From a virus (Duplodnaviria > Heunggongvirae > Uroviricota > Caudoviricetes): a DNA stretch of 11,494 nucleotides. Position 1 is the stretch's first letter. Every line of letters begins with the position of its first letter. Under the pieces are notes generated by a model. It was not told where the DNA came from, did not search any database, and saw nothing but the letters and a program-made list of their open reading frames with translations. The DNA lies in the IMG/VR virus record IMGVR_UViG_3300018488_000078, one strand, 5' to 3'. The position numbers and the translations under genes are program-made. This document shows positions 657 to 6,613 of this stretch, one piece after another.

Positions 657-1580
657 TCGCCCTCCTGAGAGACGGGATTTACGTGCATCCAGTGCATCAC
701 GCATAACGGTGATCGCATCGGTGCTGTTGACAAGTTCATCAGCCAGTCCGGCATCAATGGCCTCCTGACCGCTGTACACTGCAGCCTCGGTATCCAGCAC
801 AGCCTGCACGGACAGGCCGGTATATGCCGACACCTTCTGCGCAAACATCCGGCGGGTTGCGTCCATCCGGGACTGCAGTGTCTCCCGGACGTCATCCGGA
901 AGATGGCTGTAGGGGTTGCCATCCACCTTATGGCTGCCGCTGTAAATCAGCGTGATTTCCACACCCTGTTTCTCCAGCGCAGCACCGTAATTACTGTGAG
1001 CCATCATGACGCCGATGGAGCCTGTCCGGGCGGTCTGCGTGACCAGACGCCGGGAGGCGGCACTAGCAAGCAACTGACCTGCACTGCAGTTCATGTCGTT
1101 GGCAAGCGCCCATACCGGTTTTATGTCACGCACACGGGCGATGATGTCAGCGCAGTCAAATGCCCCCGCCACCATCCCGCCGGGCGTGTCCATATCGAGC
1201 AGAATGCCGTCCACCATCGGGTCGCTGGCAGCCTGTTGCAGACGGGCGATAATGCCGTTGTAACCGGTCATCCCCGAATACGGCTGCAGCGCTCGCGTCC
1301 GACTGACCAGCGTGCCGGACACCGGCAGCACGGCGATGCCGTTCATGACCTGATAACTGCGGGCCTGTCGTGGTCCGTCATCATCAACGGATAACGCCAG
1401 CGCCGCGGGTGCCTCTCCGGCAGTCAGGCTGTCGCCGGATACCGCATCCGTCAGGCGGCTGATCCCAAGCTGGCCTGCAAGCGCACAAAAGAAAACCCGC
1501 GCATAGGCGGGTTCAAGCATCAGCGGCTCATTAAAGGCCATACTGGCAATATGCGGGAGATTACGCAGCTCTGCTGTCAC
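261..1580 (-). CDS. C: Capsid assembly protease gpC (S49/ClpP-like prohead protease), lambda-type
   Basis: 439-codon frame from GTG at 1578-1580 with GAGGAGGAG just upstream. Translation VTAELRNLPHIASMAFNEPLMLEPAYARVFF...DAVNDLLNTPV has the length and sequence I recall for lambda gpC. It overlaps the 3' end of the B frame by 20 nt, the lambda arrangement. The ORF-track extension up to 1715 is a read-through of the upstream frame and is not used. Confidence 0.9.
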   Translation of the reverse strand: MTAELRNLPHIASMAFNEPLMLEPAYARVFFCALAGQLGISRLTDAVSGDSLTAGEAPAALALSVDDDGPRQARSYQVMNGIAVLPVSGTLVSRTRALQPYSGMTGYNGIIARLQQAASDPMVDGILLDMDTPGGMVAGAFDCADIIARVRDIKPVWALANDMNCSAGQLLASAASRRLVTQTARTGSIGVMMAHSNYGAALEKQGVEITLIYSGSHKVDGNPYSHLPDDVRETLQSRMDATRRMFAQKVSAYTGLSVQAVLDTEAAVYSGQEAIDAGLADELVNSTDAITVMRDALDARKSRLSGGRMTKETQSTTVSATASQADVTDVVPATEGENASAAQPDVNAQITAAVAAENSRIMGILNCEEAHGREEQARVLAETPGMTVETARRILAAAPQSAQARSDTALDRLMQGAPAPLAAGNPASDAVNDLLNTPV

Positions 1581-2334
1581 TCTTCTCCTCCTCTGTTGAT
1601 TGTCGCAGCCCGGATTCAAATGCCGCAGCCGCCCAGGCGGGCGGTTTAAGACCGGCTGCACGGCGCTCCATCGTTTCACGGACCTGCTGGGCAAAAATTT
1701 CCTGATAGTCGTCACCGCGTTTTGCGCACTCTTTCTCGTAGGTACTCAGTCCGGCTTCTATCAGCATCACCGCTTCCTGTACTTCTTTCAGACCATCGAT
1801 GGCCATACGACCGGAGCCTATCCAGTCGCAGTTCCCCCAGGCACTTCGGGCTTCCTGAAAACTGAAGCGCGCTTTTGAAGGTAACGTCACCACGCGGCGA
1901 GCGATGGCCTCTTCCAGCCAGCACAGAAACATCTGGCTCGCCTGACGGGATGCGACGAATTTTCGCCGCCCCATAAAGTACGCCCACGACTCGTTCGCAC
2001 TGGCCCGTGCCGTGGAGTAGCTCATCTGGGCGTAATTCCGGGAAAGCTGCTCATACGAGACACCCAGTCCGGCAGCGATATACCGCAACAGTGACTGCTC
2101 AAACACGGAGTAGCCGTTATCCGTGTCCTGAGCCGTCTGCAGGTTCAGTGAGTCCCCCGGCATCAGGTGCGGCACTTTTGCGCCTCCCAGCCGGACCGGT
2201 GCTGCGGCGTAATACGCGGCAATTTCACCAATCCAGCCGGTCAGCCTTTCCCGCTGCTCCTGACTGTTCGCGCCCAGAATAAAATCCATCGCTGACTGCG
2301 TATCCAGCTCACTCTCAATGGTGGCGGCATACAT
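1561..2334 (-). pseudogene. B: Portal protein gpB, C-terminal 257 codons only; N-terminal half absent (truncated gene)
   Basis: Translation MYAATIESELDTQSAMDFILGANSQEQRERL...AFESGLRQSTEEEKSDSRAA matches the C-terminal part of lambda gpB as recalled; lambda B is roughly twice this length. Upstream of 2334 the frame runs only 11 more codons (ILFFSCLFIKA, AT-rich) before a stop at 2368-2370, then non-coding repeat DNA. Confidence 0.85.
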
Positions 2335-2469
2335 CGCCTTTATGAAAAGACAGGAAAAAATAAAATTTAAAAACAGTACATTACGAATGCTCAGACCTAT
2401 CGTTTAAAGGAGTCGCAATACACACTGCAATACACGATTATTTATAAGATGAGCGGCATCCGTCATAAA

Positions 2470-2708
2470 GCTGGTGGATGCTTTTTCTATGCATATATGC
2501 ACAGTTTTAGTGGGCGTTAATGTCGATATAGGGATCCCCATATCGAGATTGGATACCTGGCTTTTTTCCGGTTAACCTTTAATCAGGCTGGTGGGCTTTA
2601 CCTGTTTTGTATGAGTGGTCATCATGACCATGTCATAACAAAAACCCCATATTCGTGGTTTTTCTGTGTCGGGCTATTCTGTCGTTGCTGTGCTGATTTG
2701 GCTGGTGG
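2470..2708 (+). repeat. Cluster of three Chi octamers (5'-GCTGGTGG-3') at 2470-2477, 2587-2594 and 2701-2708, same strand, spaced 117 and 114 bp
   Basis: Octamers read directly from the sequence; the second and third share the 12-mer GGCTGGTGGGCT. They lie in non-coding DNA between ORF93 and the truncated B gene. Confidence 0.85.
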
Positions 2709-2763
2709 GCTGAATCATCATTACGGCGATGCAGCTATGTAGACGTTCCGGCCTCCTCAAATT

Positions 2764-2925
2764 GAGGATTGTGGAAGAATCAATGGGTTAGTCTTACTTT
2801 CCCGACATCCCCCAATGGGGGTTTTCGAAACAATCAATAGCTTAGGCTTACTTCCCCGATTTCCTGCATTGCAGGTTTTCGAAATAATCAATGGGTTAGG
2901 CCATCGTGCAATTTTGCACTTTGCC
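2764..2925. repeat. Three tandem units of about 54 bp, each carrying a perfect IHF consensus (WATCAANNNNTTR) at 2768-2780, 2822-2834 and 2876-2888
   Basis: AATCAATGGGTTA, AATCAATAGCTTA and AATCAATGGGTTA sit exactly 54 bp apart; units 2 and 3 also share GGTTTTCGAAA immediately upstream. A palindrome CCTCAAATTGAGG (2745-2757) precedes the array. Confidence 0.7.
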
Positions 2926-3149
2926 AGCCAGCGCAATGTCGCGTTATCAGTCCTCGGATGTGAGGGATGTAGCCAGCTTTTCCCCCAGTGGGGGATATCC
3001 AGCACCGACGGCTTAACTGTGCGTGCCAGCACAAGGTAGCCTTGAACTACTTACTGCATCCCATCTTACAGGCCGTGCCTTCCTGCTTAACTTTTTGCAA
3101 TGCAACAAGTCAGCCAGCGCAATTTTGCGTTATCGGGAATATCAGCAAG

Positions 3150-3431
3150 TTACCGCCGCAATCGTTCCGGCTTCTTCCACTGGTAAGTATTTTTCGCGCT
3201 CTCCCTCCGTTGTTGAGAACGGCGACGATATGCCAGCAACTCAAGGACTCTTGTTCGTATGTTGCGCATATCCACGCCGTTAAGCTCAATACCGTCACGG
3301 CGCATCACCTCAGCCACTACACGCACATAATTATCTGCGGTCACGCTGTCCGGCTGCGTGGCCTGTTCGTCATGCTGCTTGCTGATTCCACAAGCACGGC
3401 GGATTAATCGCAGTATTTCGGATTCAGTCAT
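3150..3431 (-). CDS. Hypothetical protein, 93 aa, in the position where a large terminase gene would follow the small terminase
   Basis: ATG at 3429-3431 starts 11 nt after the TerS stop; weak Shine-Dalgarno, so translation may be coupled. Product MTESEILRLIRRACGISKQHDEQATQPDSVTADNYV... has no recognisable domain by eye. It is far too short to be a large terminase. Confidence 0.45.
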   Translation of the reverse strand: MTESEILRLIRRACGISKQHDEQATQPDSVTADNYVRVVAEVMRRDGIELNGVDMRNIRTRVLELLAYRRRSQQRRESAKNTYQWKKPERLRR

Positions 3432-3442
3432 AGCGTACTACG

Positions 3443-3985
3443 TTACTTATCTTTATTCGGCTGCAACTTATCCGGTACGTTTCCGGCAGTTTCCATCAGA
3501 TAATCGGACAGCATCAGCGGTATGTTTTCGTCAAGTTTTGCGCATGCGTTACAGGCTCTGATAACTTCTTTTTTCAGTCCATCCAGCATAGACGGCTTCA
3601 TGTCGGGAAACTTCCTTGTCATGGCAAGCGGCAGGCTGTCCATGATTGAAGAAATCTGACTCGCCAATTTTGAAAGCACGTATATACAAAACGCTGTATC
3701 AATAACGTCGCCGCGTTCGCGCTCGTTTTTAAGCTCCTGCGCCTCTGCCTGTGCTGTCAGCAATCTGATCCTGACTCGTAGGAGTTCATCATCATCAATC
3801 TCGCCTTTGTCGTCTGTAATCTGGTTAATTGCATTGCTAACCCGATTGTCTATTACGCTGGCAACATCATAAAACGCCTCGCGGCCTTTACGTTCAACGG
3901 GAGTCACTCCCCACTTGTCGAACGCTGTCGCACTTACACGGCAGCTTTGCGCCATGTTTTTTTTGTTCATCAGGTGCGATTTCAT
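3443..3985 (-). CDS. Terminase small subunit, Nu1-like, with divergent N-terminal (DNA-binding) region
   Basis: C-terminal two thirds align by eye to lambda Nu1: RLLTAQAEAQELKNERERGDVIDTAFCIYVLSKLASQISSIMDSLPLAMTRKFPDMK versus lambda RLTRAQADAQELKNARDSAEVVETAFCTFVLSRIAGEIASILDGLPLSVQRRFPELE. The N-terminal ~70 residues differ. Start chosen at ATG 3983-3985 (GGGGA 6 nt upstream); GTG at 3995-3997 and ATGs at 3968-3970 and 3953-3955 are alternatives. Confidence 0.85.
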   Translation of the reverse strand: MKSHLMNKKNMAQSCRVSATAFDKWGVTPVERKGREAFYDVASVIDNRVSNAINQITDDKGEIDDDELLRVRIRLLTAQAEAQELKNERERGDVIDTAFCIYVLSKLASQISSIMDSLPLAMTRKFPDMKPSMLDGLKKEVIRACNACAKLDENIPLMLSDYLMETAGNVPDKLQPNKDK

Positions 3986-4096
3986 CAATATCCCCACTTA
4001 AGTAATGTTTCAGGTTGGTGTATTGGCTTTATCTTTTCCTTTTTATTCATAGAGATAGAGCGAACAACAAAACCACCACCAGCACCCGAAAAAGGC

Positions 4097-4160
4097 TCAT
4101 AAATAGCGAAAACCCGCGAGGTCGCCGCCCCGTAGCCTACCGGATCACCGGAAAGGACCC
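4097..4160 (-). other. Lambda-type cos site: cosQ-like segment (4141-4160) and cosN with 12-nt cohesive-end sequence GGGCGGCGACCT (4119-4130); cosB side divergent
   Basis: Minus strand reads GGGTCCTTTCCGGTGATCCGGTAGGCTACG-GGGCGGCGACCT-CGCGGGTTTTCGCTATTTATGA. The cohesive-end 12-mer and flanking cosN sequence match the lambda left end as I recall it, and the upstream segment matches the lambda right-end/cosQ region except for a few bases. Below 4097 the sequence departs from lambda cosB. Confidence 0.85.
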
Positions 4161-4186
4161 GCCAGCCAGAGCGGGCCCTAATTTCA

Positions 4187-4570
4187 TCAACCAATCAGCT
4201 TATAGCGACCATCCCGTGCATTGCGGCGTACACGCTCAATCTTGAGGCATAGCGCCGCATCTGGCTTTTTTGGGACAGGTACGCGGCAATATTCAGAAGC
4301 GCGAGGAATATTATTTATCCAGTCGATCACTTCACTTAAATACCAGGCCTTACGCCCTTCCGTAACCTGCACACGCTCCGGGAACTCTCCACTAGCCTCA
4401 AGGTTTAGCAGTGTACGACGACTCAGGGTTGTAATTTCCATCACCTGATTCATATCAACAAGGCGCTCGCTTAAACACATTTTGTCAGCGATAGCTTTTA
4501 ATTCCTCTACAGCTGGATTCGGGTACATCATTTCGGCAATTGGCTTAAGGTCATTGTAATCATTCTGCAT
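4187..4570 (-). CDS. AlpA-family (MerR-like HTH) DNA-binding regulator with ~40-residue N-terminal extension
   Basis: ATG 4568-4570 with GGGGGA upstream. Segment VMEITTLSRRTLLNLEASGEFPERVQVTEGRKAWYLSEVIDWINN fits the AlpA/prophage CP4-57 regulator HTH pattern. Stop at 4187-4189 lies 26 bp from cosQ. Confidence 0.65.
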   Translation of the reverse strand: MQNDYNDLKPIAEMMYPNPAVEELKAIADKMCLSERLVDMNQVMEITTLSRRTLLNLEASGEFPERVQVTEGRKAWYLSEVIDWINNIPRASEYCRVPVPKKPDAALCLKIERVRRNARDGRYKLIG

Positions 4571-4581
4571 TGTATCCCCCT

Positions 4582-4923
4582 TTACACACGAGCCAGCGGC
4601 TGAACAGAAATACCTGAGCCAACAAACGCTGCAACCTTTACTGACAGTTCTTTAACAGACTCAGGCCAGTTCAGAGCATCAACATTTAAGACACCTGTCT
4701 TATAGACCTGAGCCTGTGTTTTTTTCGCGGTGTCGATTTGTACAGCGGAAACATAAACCGCTTTACCTACGCTCGAACCATCCCATACCACCAGTGCACC
4801 TGTTGCATCTTCCTGCATCAGTGGCGTAAATGCAGGAATTACCCCTTTATTAGCTGAAAATATCCCCAGCGTAGTCACCAGTGCTTCAGTGCCAGCCATG
4901 AGTTCAGTGTAATGAGTAGCCAT
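4582..4923 (-). CDS. Head decoration protein, gpD-like, divergent from the lambda-type D at 1-251
   Basis: ATG 4921-4923 with GGGGGAG upstream. By-eye alignment to lambda gpD: PAFTPLMQEDATGALVVWDGSS...YKTGVLNVDALNWPES...AAFVGSGISV versus [22 protein letters not shown]...[16 protein letters not shown]...TAFAGTAISIV. Confidence 0.8.
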   Translation of the reverse strand: MATHYTELMAGTEALVTTLGIFSANKGVIPAFTPLMQEDATGALVVWDGSSVGKAVYVSAVQIDTAKKTQAQVYKTGVLNVDALNWPESVKELSVKVAAFVGSGISVQPLARV

Positions 4924-4932
4924 TGCTCCCCC

Positions 4933-5979
4933 TTAGCCAATGCGAACGGTAACAAAACGATTGATGCGGGCCGGTATTGGCTGTGGTGCTGAATGTGTCT
5001 GCACATATTCAATAGCCGGATCACCAGGCACAATATAGTTTTTCGGTGCAAGTTCGGCTTTAGTCAGCCCCATTCGGATTAGCTCCGGATCCTGAATACC
5101 GCCATAGGCGACAATCCCCTGAAGAGCCGTATTGCCAAGCACCATCAAATCAGGATCAAGGAAATGTTTTTCTGTTCCGTCCTCGTCGGTATAACGTCCG
5201 CTGTAAACAACAATCGCAACATCGCCCATATACCCTTTAAAACTCACCGAATCACCAAGGTCTTTAAGGGCCGTTTCCAGTTCGGAATTAGAACCACGAC
5301 GGGTATCCAAAGCCTCTTTTATCGCTCTGAATGAACGGTATTTCTTCCATACATTACCACCCATAATGATGATATTAGTGACGCCCTCACTAAATTCTGC
5401 GTAGCTCTCAATATCATCATTTGGATCAAAAGTTTCTTTATCCTTACCTGACCACTCAGTACCGCCAGACTGAGTGATGATATTTTGTGGTTTTATATTC
5501 CAGTCCAGCTCATAACGTTCAATACCATCGCCCTCAATGATATTTTTCCCCGTTGTGATTGCCTGAACAGCAAGCCATTCAATACGTGCACGAATAGCTT
5601 TAGCCTGATTTACAATCGCCTGTTTAACTTTAATATTACGCGCCCCAAAAGCATTGTATTGCTCAGGTGACACACCAGCAGGGCGCACAGCTAACTTATT
5701 TGGATCAATGCTGCTTTTCGGCTTCATATAACCTGGACGAATTGTTTTTGATTCGTATCCCTCATCTCGTGAAACTTTACTGCCCACCATAGGAGAGCAA
5801 AACGCCGCGATCGGGATATTTGGATCGTCGATCGTATCAAGAATAATGTCTCTCGATTCAAACATTACCGAGCGAGTGAAAAACAAACTGGTAAACAACG
5901 CATTTAATTTTTTTTGCACATCTTCAGCATTAGCCACCTGCACAAGCTGTGTAGGCGAATATAAATCAACCATACTCAT
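4933..5979 (-). CDS. Major capsid protein, lambda gpE family, divergent
   Basis: Shared blocks with lambda gpE as recalled: NIITQSGGTEWSGKDKETFDPNDDIESYAEF versus NITQSGGTEWSKRDKSTYDPTDDIEAYA, and LDTRRGSNSELETA in both. N-terminus MSMVDLYSPTQ parallels lambda MSMYTTAQ. ATG 5977-5979 abuts the GAGG motif, so the ATG at 5971-5973 (6-nt spacer) may be the real start. ORF-track extension to 6060 is not used. Confidence 0.85.
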   Translation of the reverse strand: MSMVDLYSPTQLVQVANAEDVQKKLNALFTSLFFTRSVMFESRDIILDTIDDPNIPIAAFCSPMVGSKVSRDEGYESKTIRPGYMKPKSSIDPNKLAVRPAGVSPEQYNAFGARNIKVKQAIVNQAKAIRARIEWLAVQAITTGKNIIEGDGIERYELDWNIKPQNIITQSGGTEWSGKDKETFDPNDDIESYAEFSEGVTNIIIMGGNVWKKYRSFRAIKEALDTRRGSNSELETALKDLGDSVSFKGYMGDVAIVVYSGRYTDEDGTEKHFLDPDLMVLGNTALQGIVAYGGIQDPELIRMGLTKAELAPKNYIVPGDPAIEYVQTHSAPQPIPARINRFVTVRIG

Positions 5980-6144
5980 CCTCTTTACATTCATTACAAA
6001 TAATTGTGAATATATTCTATTACCGATGTCTGCTATGCGAATACATGCAACCAAGTGCAATGTTGTATAAAATATGCCGTAACAACTTCAGTGCTGATAA
6101 TTCGTGTTAATGTATTTACTTCCTTTGGTCGGGATTTATGTAGC

Positions 6145-6184
6145 ATGCCGGAAAATCTATTTTTTTCCGGCATCTTTTTGTTTG
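6145..6184 (+). terminator. Stem-loop (11-bp arms ATGCCGGAAAA / TTTTCCGGCAT, 7-nt loop) followed by CTTTTTGTTTG; terminator-like on the plus strand only
   Basis: Read directly: arms 6145-6155 and 6163-6173, T-tract 6174-6184. On the minus strand the hairpin is not followed by a U-tract. No plus-strand gene is annotated upstream, so its role is unclear. Confidence 0.35.
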
Positions 6185-6190
6185 CAGAAT

Positions 6191-6613
6191 TTAAAACGGT
6201 ATATTATCGCCGTACGGATCATCATTCCCCGACTGTTGTTTTGCCCTGTTCAGTGCGTCAGTGGCCTGCCCCTGCTGGCCTTTTTTGCCGCCCGGTCGCG
6301 CCGTTCGCGCACTGATTACGCTGTCTGCGATAACCTGCCAGCCCCGCCGCGTTTCGCCGTTCTGGCCTGTCCACTGGCTTACCTGCATGTTACCCGCCAC
6401 GCTCACCAGTTCGCCTTTGTGGTGTTTTGCCAGTGCGTCGGCCTGTCTGCCAAACGCCAGGACGGATAACCACATCGTCGCCGTTCCGTCATCTGCCTGG
6501 CTGCACGGCAGGGGAACCGCCATACTCGCCATCGCCATTTGTGTCCCTTTGCTGGTGGTCTTTAACTGCGGGTCAGCCACCAGCCGCCCGTAAGCCGCTA
6601 TCTGTGCTGTCAT
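6191..6613 (-). CDS. ssb: Single-stranded DNA-binding protein (SSB) with acidic C-terminal tail ending DNIPF
   Basis: ATG 6611-6613 overlaps the upstream stop (ATGA). Glycine/glutamine-rich linker and C-terminal ...DDPYGDNIPF resemble the E. coli SSB tip ...DDDIPF. Confidence 0.8.
   Translation of the reverse strand: MTAQIAAYGRLVADPQLKTTSKGTQMAMASMAVPLPCSQADDGTATMWLSVLAFGRQADALAKHHKGELVSVAGNMQVSQWTGQNGETRRGWQVIADSVISARTARPGGKKGQQGQATDALNRAKQQSGNDDPYGDNIPF

Follow-up and report, generated by a model that had tools for sequence, protein, structure and literature searches.

Phage-inducible chromosomal islands (PICIs) that reside within genes of their helper prophages were described by Tommasini, Mageeney & Williams (preprint 2022; NAR Genom Bioinform 2023; PMC10111431), who reported 491 helper-embedded PICIs (HE-PICIs) at 14 sites. 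The sites lie in the lambda-type genes A, B, C, E, V, T, H, L and J, and one group occupies positions 240-243 of the Phage_portal_2 profile (PMC10111431). HE-PICI integrases form a single clade, and the attP carries a doubled motif (PMC10111431). The elements are organised into an integration, a Bro, a replication and a late zone, and no late gene is more frequent in Gram-negative PICIs than the capsid gene, which is present in 21 of the 29 reference elements (PMC10111431). For EcCICFT073, the model PICI of Gram-negative bacteria (Fillol-Salom et al., 2018, 2019), c1499 was named 'putative capsid protein' and c1500 'head decoration protein' (Fillol-Salom et al., 2018; PMC6092414). Helper-induced excision, replication and transfer were published for EcCICFT073 (PMC6092414), and excision alone for the HE-PICI 11capE (PMC10111431). 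Ccm of SaPIbov5 and the capsid genes of PICIs have been discussed in terms of capsid remodelling or poisoning since 2016-2018. In this study, we analysed a stretch of 11,494 nucleotides of a virus assigned to the Caudoviricetes (IMG/VR record IMGVR_UViG_3300018488_000078; hereafter the window), in which a gpE-like major capsid gene and a gpD-like decoration gene lie side by side at positions 4582-5979. As judged from sequence and genomic context, this pair is the conserved late module of a helper-embedded enterobacterial PICI of the EcCICFT073 family. Elements of this type, the gene pair they carry and a crystal structure from a relative have all been published before, and the locus represents no new kind of system. 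Taken as a whole, with identity, mechanism and role of the pair together, we consider the explanation developed below to be probably correct.

Both proteins of the pair belong to known head-protein families. The capsid open reading frame (ORF; 4933-5979, minus strand) is intact, and its product matched the Pfam family Phage_cap_E (PF03864) with 2.9e-41 over profile positions 4-327 of 329, and PHROG 29 'major head protein' with 2e-89. Among solved structures it matched PDB 3BQW (1e-121), which is titled putative capsid protein of a CFT073 prophage and corresponds in sequence to c1499, and lambda gpE (7VI9; 9e-78). An AlphaFold model with 40 homologues as input (predicted local distance difference test, pLDDT, 75; predicted template-modelling score, pTM, 0.77) superposed on 3BQW with a template-modelling (TM) score of 0.88 and on lambda gpE with scores of 0.83-0.86. 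An earlier reading of the window from its letters and ORFs alone (the sequence-only reading) had taken the longer, 348-aa form of the protein and suggested structure prediction for it; the superpositions on 3BQW and gpE bear out an HK97 fold. With this fold and a full-length profile match, the protein is a member of the lambda E family, 42% identical to lambda gpE and 54% to c1499 of EcCICFT073. Of the two candidate ATGs, the one at 5979 directly adjoins the ribosome-binding site AAGAGG, and the one at 5973 is 6 nt away from it. Because of this spacing, and because RefSeq annotates the 346-aa form, the gene likely starts at 5973 rather than at 5979. Divergence between the satellite and lambda clades is uneven along the protein: a central segment (residues ~165-270) is best conserved, and the N-terminal third and parts of the C-terminus have diverged most. 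Positions that are conserved within each clade and differ between the clades cluster at residues 43-65, 123-144 and 324-332, which map close to the base of the E-loop, to the spine helix and to the C-terminal strand. This pattern is compatible with a lineage-specific interface that would require the cognate decoration protein.

The decoration protein was assigned to the gpD/SHP family by a score above the Pfam gathering cut-off (HDPD, PF02924: 4.5e-15, 56 bits, cut-off 29) and by matches to the solved structures of SHP of phage 21 (1TD0; 4.7e-16) and lambda gpD (1e-11). It also matched PHROG 49 'head decoration' with 1.3e-25. The motifs TPLM, WDG, YK(S/T)G and WPE are preserved as in lambda gpD, and the protein is 40-42% identical to the D protein of the helper and 55% to c1500. 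A GGGGGAG ribosome-binding site lies upstream of its ATG. Profiles and solved structures thus uphold the gpE-like and gpD-like identity that had been proposed for the pair, as HK97-fold and gpD-fold homologues. The TAA of the capsid gene and the ATG of the decoration gene are separated by 9 nt and stand in frame (TAA GGG GGA GCA ATG; window 4923-4935). One database sequence, a protein of 463 aa that is 85% identical, holds both Pfam domains, so that a change of the stop codon yields a capsid-decoration fusion.

The capsid gene precedes the decoration gene, reversing the order of lambda, as the sequence-only reading had pointed out. Genes of the pair are 9-11 nt apart and have good ribosome-binding sites. 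Two groups emerge among the homologues, one at 52-100% identity and the other, lambda-like, at no more than 44%. All inspected relatives at 52-86% identity, from nine genera (among them E. coli, Kluyvera, Superficieibacter, Cedecea, Kosakonia, Serratia, Edwardsiella and Lelliottia), are found in satellites and have the capsid gene first. These satellites are PICIs or HE-PICIs at tRNA-Pro, roxA, fis, helper gene E and helper gene B. At the protein level, the best match among 50,697 phage records was 42% identical for the capsid and 40% for the decoration protein, and megablast of the pair against the same records gave no match. Both the closest inspected phage relative of the decoration gene and the helper prophages, including the CFT073 icd helper prophage, show the lambda order of protease, decoration and capsid. 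By these comparisons, the pair forms a satellite-resident lineage apart from sequenced phages, with 44% identity at most to any phage. This lineage is new in this analysis, and so are the constant capsid-then-decoration order and the strong purifying selection on the pair.

The ratio of nonsynonymous to synonymous substitution rates (dN/dS) was 0.06-0.08 for the capsid gene in both comparisons (dS 0.3 and 1.3) and 0.10-0.18 for the decoration gene in the two comparisons with unsaturated dS. Values for the primase, the small terminase, the 93-aa gene and AlpA ranged from 0.10 to 0.26, which places the capsid and decoration genes among the lowest of the six gene sets compared. Both ORFs were intact at all loci inspected, and clusters at 97% identity or more comprised ~1,900 sequences with full-length representatives versus ~34 with truncated ones. 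Intact ORFs and purifying selection show that the pair is no remnant. The sequence-only reading had named a failed fold prediction or a non-expressed remnant as outcomes that would refute it; instead, the folds were confirmed, and the genes proved intact and selected.

Of 5,426 complete E. coli genomes, 395 contained the pair with a coverage of 80% or more, and 53 complete genomes contained the whole element (at least 80% of a 9-kb stretch at ~98% identity). Since the pair occurs in more genomes than the whole element, it is shared among several satellite backbones. The gene downstream of the pair and the packaging gene vary among relatives. A chimeric capsid protein between the two homologue groups was encoded on a metagenome scaffold (ENA, 4,432 bp; gene 2801-3829). 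It is lambda-type from residue 1 to ~225 and satellite-type thereafter, where it is 100% identical to the protein of the window. An uninterrupted portal gene, an S49 gene and helper D come before this gene, and the satellite decoration gene and AlpA after it. Exact nucleotide matches between the parental genes reach 13 nt at most, and the chimera stems either from genuine helper-satellite recombination or from an error of assembly.

The genomic context explains why a lambda-type head block adjoins the pair: the satellite is inserted site-specifically in the portal gene of a helper prophage. The portal gene is cut at Phage_portal_2 positions 238/239. Its C-terminal fragment lies in the window, and the N-terminal fragment (profile 2-239) flanks the far side of the element in E. 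coli EC93; such fragments also flank the element in Ch1 and CFSAN018748, and the same satellite/prophage composite was present in all three E. coli strains inspected. The att core, the 8-mer ATCGCCTT, occurs at both junctions in EC93 (12034-12041 and 22933-22940 of the locus), and a portal-site element in Edwardsiella uses the same core (AAGGCGAT on the gene strand). Beside both junctions in EC93 and Edwardsiella lies a repeated motif, GCAATACAC-N2-GCAATACAC. As far as can be judged from the published description, this repeat fits the 'doubled DNA motif' reported as specific to HE-PICIs. A metagenome scaffold with an uninterrupted portal gene represents the empty attB. Beyond the end of the window, the EC93 copy carries an additional AlpA gene and, next to the N-terminal portal part, a tyrosine integrase. 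The sequence-only reading had seen a second gpE/gpD pair next to a lambda-type head block; the split portal gene and the shared att core show a satellite insertion instead. Its recognition of a lambda-type D gene at 1-251 was right, these being the first 83 codons of helper D.

The element possesses three hallmarks of HE-PICIs, namely a split late gene, co-orientation with this gene and the doubled motif in the att arms. It is oriented like the helper late genes B, C and D on the minus strand; the gene of the YlcI/YnfO family is the one likely gene of the window on the other strand. The island measures ~10.9 kb, and the GC content falls at ~2,350 of the window. It also shows the features of Gram-negative PICIs, namely int, alpA and pri-rep in one direction, a length within the expected ~10-15 kb and an origin beside pri, with integrase and AlpA judged from the near-identical EC93 copy. 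The EC93 integrase shares 88% identity with its counterpart in the Edwardsiella portal-site element, where core and motif are also the same. Identity falls to 52-53% for elements that sit in helper gene E (Cedecea, Kosakonia), to 40-46% for chromosomal PICIs integrated at roxA or fis and to 25% for a tRNA-Pro PICI. As pairwise identities, these values are consistent with the HE-PICI clade.

The packaging signal is of the helper type (cos): an exact lambda cosN (GGGCGGCGACCT) lies upstream of a Nu1-family gene. The ~70 bp surrounding this cosN hardly differ from the helper cos, in contrast to the diverged cosB side. The satellite small terminase is 37-40% identical to helper Nu1, with the C-terminal half most similar. 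This suggests that the satellite protein might redirect the helper terminase, as in the pac-type Staphylococcus aureus pathogenicity islands (SaPIs). An assignment of the 180-aa protein to Rpp was rejected, as it is 18% identical to RppA and matches the Nu1-family profile; comparison with solved structures gave no match. Neither Pfam and PHROG searches of the element ORFs nor the RefSeq annotation revealed a large terminase, portal, protease or head-tail connector family. The claim that the pair stands alone therefore holds for portal, protease and scaffold, but not for its setting, an element with cosN, a Nu1-like terminase, a replication module and an integrase. Lacking these head genes, the large terminase and tail genes, the element must use the portal, protease, scaffold, large terminase and tails of the helper. 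This agrees with the mobile element dependent on helper portal, protease, scaffold and tails that had been proposed for this locus.

Functional tests are published for EcCICFT073. With lambda as helper, the packaged DNA was of phage size throughout, which led the authors to rule out size redirection (PMC6092414). Deletion of c1499 or c1500 neither relieved the interference with lambda nor diminished transfer, and the authors found no phenotype for c1499 (PMC6092414). Among the cloned post-primase genes expressed from PBAD, rppA (c1503) alone inhibited lambda, and deletion of rppA fully restored lambda plaques (PMC6739421). In this relative, the nearest one characterised, the evidence is thus negative for the two activities that the sequence-only reading had considered for the pair, capsid remodelling and assembly poisoning; for the sub-clade of the window, both are hypothetical.

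Based on the published biology of the family, we propose the following course of events. Upon helper induction, the helper late transcript would read through the embedded island. The island, integrated by its own tyrosine integrase at the 8-bp core, would excise and thereby restore the portal gene, and would replicate from its own origin. The resulting satellite cos concatemers would be cut and packaged by the helper large terminase under guidance of the satellite small terminase, and the packaged heads would be joined to helper tails. Tentatively, we assign the pair a structural role in this process, as assembly-competent shell and cement subunits that use the helper portal, scaffold and protease. 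The satellite subunits would form, or enter, lambda-sized heads and would supply a capsid independent of helper E and D, which are often interrupted, diverged or decayed. The pair would be redundant with E and D in laboratory helpers, and useful with helpers in which E or D is impaired or diverged; E is the commonest HE-PICI insertion site.

Several points weigh against this account. The far junction and the integrase were read from near-identical relatives (98% over 9 kb), since the window ends before the integrase, and the integrases were compared by pairwise identity and not through the published phylogeny. Deletion of c1499/c1500 in EcCICFT073 left transfer by the resident helper unchanged (PMC6092414); therefore, a structural role must be redundant or conditional. 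Chromosomal PICIs that interrupt no helper gene also carry the pair, so that a backup for an interrupted helper gene is not the general reason for its presence, and the helper gene interrupted in the window is the portal gene and not E. Furthermore, expression and assembly of the pair proteins and their presence in particles are predictions from the DNA.

The state of the helpers was examined in the three E. coli strains. An internal stop interrupts the helper E gene of EC93 (8539-9564 of the locus), whereas Ch1 and CFSAN018748 have an intact copy. The helper of CFSAN018748 is cut short after FI by an IS66 element. As far as these loci tell, helpers of the embedded satellites are decaying in some strains. 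A function of the pair as backup for a broken helper E was considered and set aside, because the stop in EC93 is strain-specific decay.

Another use of the same proteins would be capsid-size redirection, in which satellite capsid and decoration proteins build smaller shells for one or two 10.9-kb copies and exclude the helper genome. Ccm of SaPIbov5 makes small capsids, and Pasteurella PmCI172, which has a capsid homologue, yields small-headed particles (PMC6092414). The capsid protein of the window belongs to another sub-clade than c1499 (54% identity), and a Nu1-type small terminase accompanies it in place of Rpp; thus, the results obtained with EcCICFT073 need not transfer. The location of the clade-specific positions near the E-loop base, spine helix and C-terminal strand also speaks for this possibility. 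However, it was ruled out for EcCICFT073 with lambda, where the DNA was all phage-sized, and the element has no size-determining scaffold gene. Moreover, four copies of 10.9 kb amount to 43.6 kb, which is ~90% of the lambda genome and within the packaging limits of lambda, so that satellite multimers fit normal heads without remodelling. We consider size redirection unlikely. A more far-reaching version, in our view quite unlikely, is that this sub-clade, with capsid, decoration, AlpA, cos and small terminase, is a minimal capsid-forming module that builds satellite-specific shells, possibly of smaller T number and dimensioned for one or two 10.9-kb copies. Such a module would take only portal, scaffold/protease, large terminase and tail from the helper. 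If this were true, it would be the missing intermediate between classical PICIs and capsid-forming PICIs (cf-PICIs), and the second AlpA would act like P4 Delta in a sid-delta-psu operon.

Alternatively, the divergent subunits could co-assemble with helper gpE and gpD and spoil the helper heads, thereby protecting the host population. Satellites commonly interfere with their helpers, and the proteins, at 40-42% identity to those of the helper, have diverged mostly outside the central, best-conserved segment, both of which would suit a poison. However, deletion of c1499/c1500 gave no relief of interference in EcCICFT073, rppA was the sole lambda inhibitor among the cloned genes and its deletion restored plaques, and a PADLOC scan gave no match for any protein of the element. 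A pure poison needs neither a co-conserved decoration protein nor a dN/dS below 0.1 over the full length. A defence of this kind is thus very improbable.

The pair could also be decaying cargo, i.e., a non-functional leftover of captured helper late genes, given that satellites do capture helper late-gene clusters (PMC10111431) and that the genes had no laboratory phenotype in EcCICFT073. This is contradicted by the intact ORFs at all inspected loci in nine genera, by dN/dS values of 0.06-0.18 at dS up to 1.3, by a gene order unlike that of every inspected phage relative and by the finding that no phage source exceeds 42% identity; we regard it as extremely improbable. That the second E/D pair came from rearranged or tandem lambdoid prophages, as two sets of head genes no more than 5 kb apart might indicate, is practically excluded by the junction analysis, which refuted such a rearrangement: the portal gene is split cleanly at the 8-bp core with an integrase at the far end, the intervening 10.9 kb contain the genes of a PICI but no further structural or lysis genes of a phage, and the empty attB exists in a metagenome scaffold.

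Satellites carry the pair in at least nine enterobacterial genera and, counting this sub-clade alone, in ~7% of complete E. coli genomes. Purifying selection on the pair is strong, yet its deletion left no phenotype in EcCICFT073, the single model studied. Knowing what the pair does would show to what extent PICIs rely on the heads of their helpers and by which route cf-PICIs may have arisen. Candidate roles are a head supply independent of E and D, an extension of the helper range and conditional size control.

The features of the window are listed in Table 1, apart from small ORFs and an Icd-like gene that it also carries. The helper S49 gene is annotated as 'S49 family peptidase' in EC93, Ch1 and CFSAN018748. 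The second AlpA gene lies directly after the decoration gene and before cos, and is additional to the AlpA gene beside the integrase. Its position is conserved in satellites of MEW, Kluyvera, Superficieibacter, Cedecea, Kosakonia and Serratia, i.e., in at least six genera. The 93-aa protein is 76-92% identical in the MEW, UTAK-4 and CFT073 satellites, where its gene has the same position, and the DUF4222 gene likewise keeps its position in these three. The iteron-like repeats downstream of the primase gene are the probable replication origin of the satellite, a position that agrees with the origin reported downstream of pri in Gram-negative PICIs (PMC6092414, PMC10111431).

Table 1. Coordinates of helper and satellite features in the 11,494-nt window
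Feature	Position	Strand	Remarks
Helper head-decoration gene D, first 83 codons	1..251	-	Runs off the window; near residue-for-residue match to EC93 helper D
Helper S49 protease/scaffold gene (lambda C/Nu3 equivalent), 439 aa	261..1580	-	Pfam Peptidase_S49 6e-44
C-terminal fragment of lambda-family portal gene B	1561..2340	-	Pfam Phage_portal_2 positions 238-354
att core ATCGCCTT, satellite/portal junction	2333..2340		Same 8-mer at both EC93 junctions
Doubled motif GCAATACAC-N2-GCAATACAC in attachment-site arm	2415..2435		Beside both junctions, EC93 and Edwardsiella
Conserved 93-aa protein, last satellite gene	3150..3431	-	phrog_1561 1e-55
Satellite small terminase, Nu1 family, 180 aa	3443..3985	-	Pfam Phage_Nu1 3.5e-24; phrog_57 3e-51
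cosN, exact lambda 12-mer GGGCGGCGACCT	4119..4130	-	Just upstream of the satellite small terminase gene
Second AlpA-family regulator, 127 aa	4187..4570	-	Pfam Phage_AlpA 7.6e-9; phrog_2790 1e-49
Satellite head-decoration protein, gpD/SHP family, 113 aa	4582..4923	-	Pfam, PHROG and solved structures
Satellite major capsid protein, lambda E family, HK97 fold, 346 aa	4933..5973	-	Alternative ATG at 5979
Satellite single-stranded DNA-binding protein (SSB)	6191..6613	-	Pfam SSB 5.5e-16
Iteron-like repeats GGTAGAGGG, direct and inverted copies	6967..7198		Repeat families D2, D3, D7, I1, I2
P4-type primase/helicase (D5_N, DUF5906, Pox_D5)	7207..8961	-	97% identical to EcCICFT073 primase
DUF4222 protein, conserved upstream partner of primase	8958..9257	-	Pfam DUF4222 5e-23
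YlcI/YnfO-family protein, Bro/regulatory zone	10255..10560	+	NCBIfam YlcI_YnfO_N 1.6e-17
Bro-N domain gene	10894..11474	-	5' part unlike the EC93 allele

In the Bro zone, the match of the window to E. coli genomes, otherwise 98%, ends at ~11353 within the Bro-N gene, and this gene has no canonical in-frame start codon upstream of the conserved domain. The allele may be recombined or inactivated, in line with the reported domain swapping in Bro zones. A stop-free frame of 356 aa (9867-10937, minus strand) overlaps the regulatory zone; only its last ~65 codons correspond to an annotated Icd-like protein, and the frame as such is probably not a gene. At 2748-2909, within a non-coding stretch of ~800 bp between the att site and the last satellite gene, three tandem 54-nt repeats are 65-72% identical, each with a short hairpin such as CCTCAAATTGAGG. 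An Rfam scan for P4-type immunity RNAs (C4/isrK) gave no hits at the gathering threshold. Promoter and terminator predictions in 2300-7300 were at or below the shuffled expectation in number and were not used as evidence.

Compared with P4-like satellites, the element has a P4-type primase and an Icd-like gene, and lacks their set of Sid, Psu and Delta plus alpha primase; Pfam, PHROG and NCBIfam scans gave no match to Psu, Sid or Delta/Ogr. The pair resembles lambda D and E in belonging to the same families and folds (TM 0.83-0.86 to gpE, decoration motifs kept). In contrast to the lambda genes, it has the reversed order at 40-42% identity, is not preceded by portal and protease/scaffold genes and is located near cos, at the right end of the satellite genome. 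SaPIbov5 is similar as a satellite of a cos phage that encodes a homologue of the helper capsid protein (Ccm) without portal or large terminase (PMC6092414). It is, however, a Gram-positive element without a cognate decoration protein, and its small-capsid function was demonstrated, whereas the equivalent test in the E. coli family was negative. The cf-PICIs (Alqurainy et al., 2023) are likewise PICI-type satellites with their own HK97-fold capsid protein, but they encode both terminase subunits, portal, protease and connectors, while the element described here has only capsid, decoration and small terminase and carries no large terminase, portal, protease or connectors. A Lelliottia PICI at fis carries capsid, decoration and S49 protease/scaffold genes (order E-D-C versus C-D-E in lambda) and a head-completion protein (11409-12752 and 5117-5518 of its locus), which suggests a graded series toward cf-PICIs.

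The closest relatives are EcCICFT073 and the portal-site group of HE-PICIs. The synteny shared with EcCICFT073 comprises DUF4222, primase, a small gene, SSB, capsid, decoration, one further gene, the packaging gene and the 93-aa gene, and the two elements also have in common a primase that is 97% identical, the capsid-then-decoration order and cos packaging. They differ in the capsid and decoration proteins (54-55% identical), in the packaging gene (RppA in EcCICFT073, a Nu1-family small terminase here, 18% identical), in the gene after the decoration gene (an AlpA homologue here, an unrelated 137-aa protein in EcCICFT073 and also in UTAK-4) and in the integration site (the chromosomal roxA-phoQ site in EcCICFT073, the portal gene of the helper here). 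The HE-PICI publication does not address the decoration gene, the conserved capsid-then-decoration order or selection on the pair. Otherwise nothing essential separates the element from the portal group of HE-PICIs, with which it shares the portal site at ~238-239, the doubled motif, the four zones, an E-family capsid gene and a length of ~11 kb.

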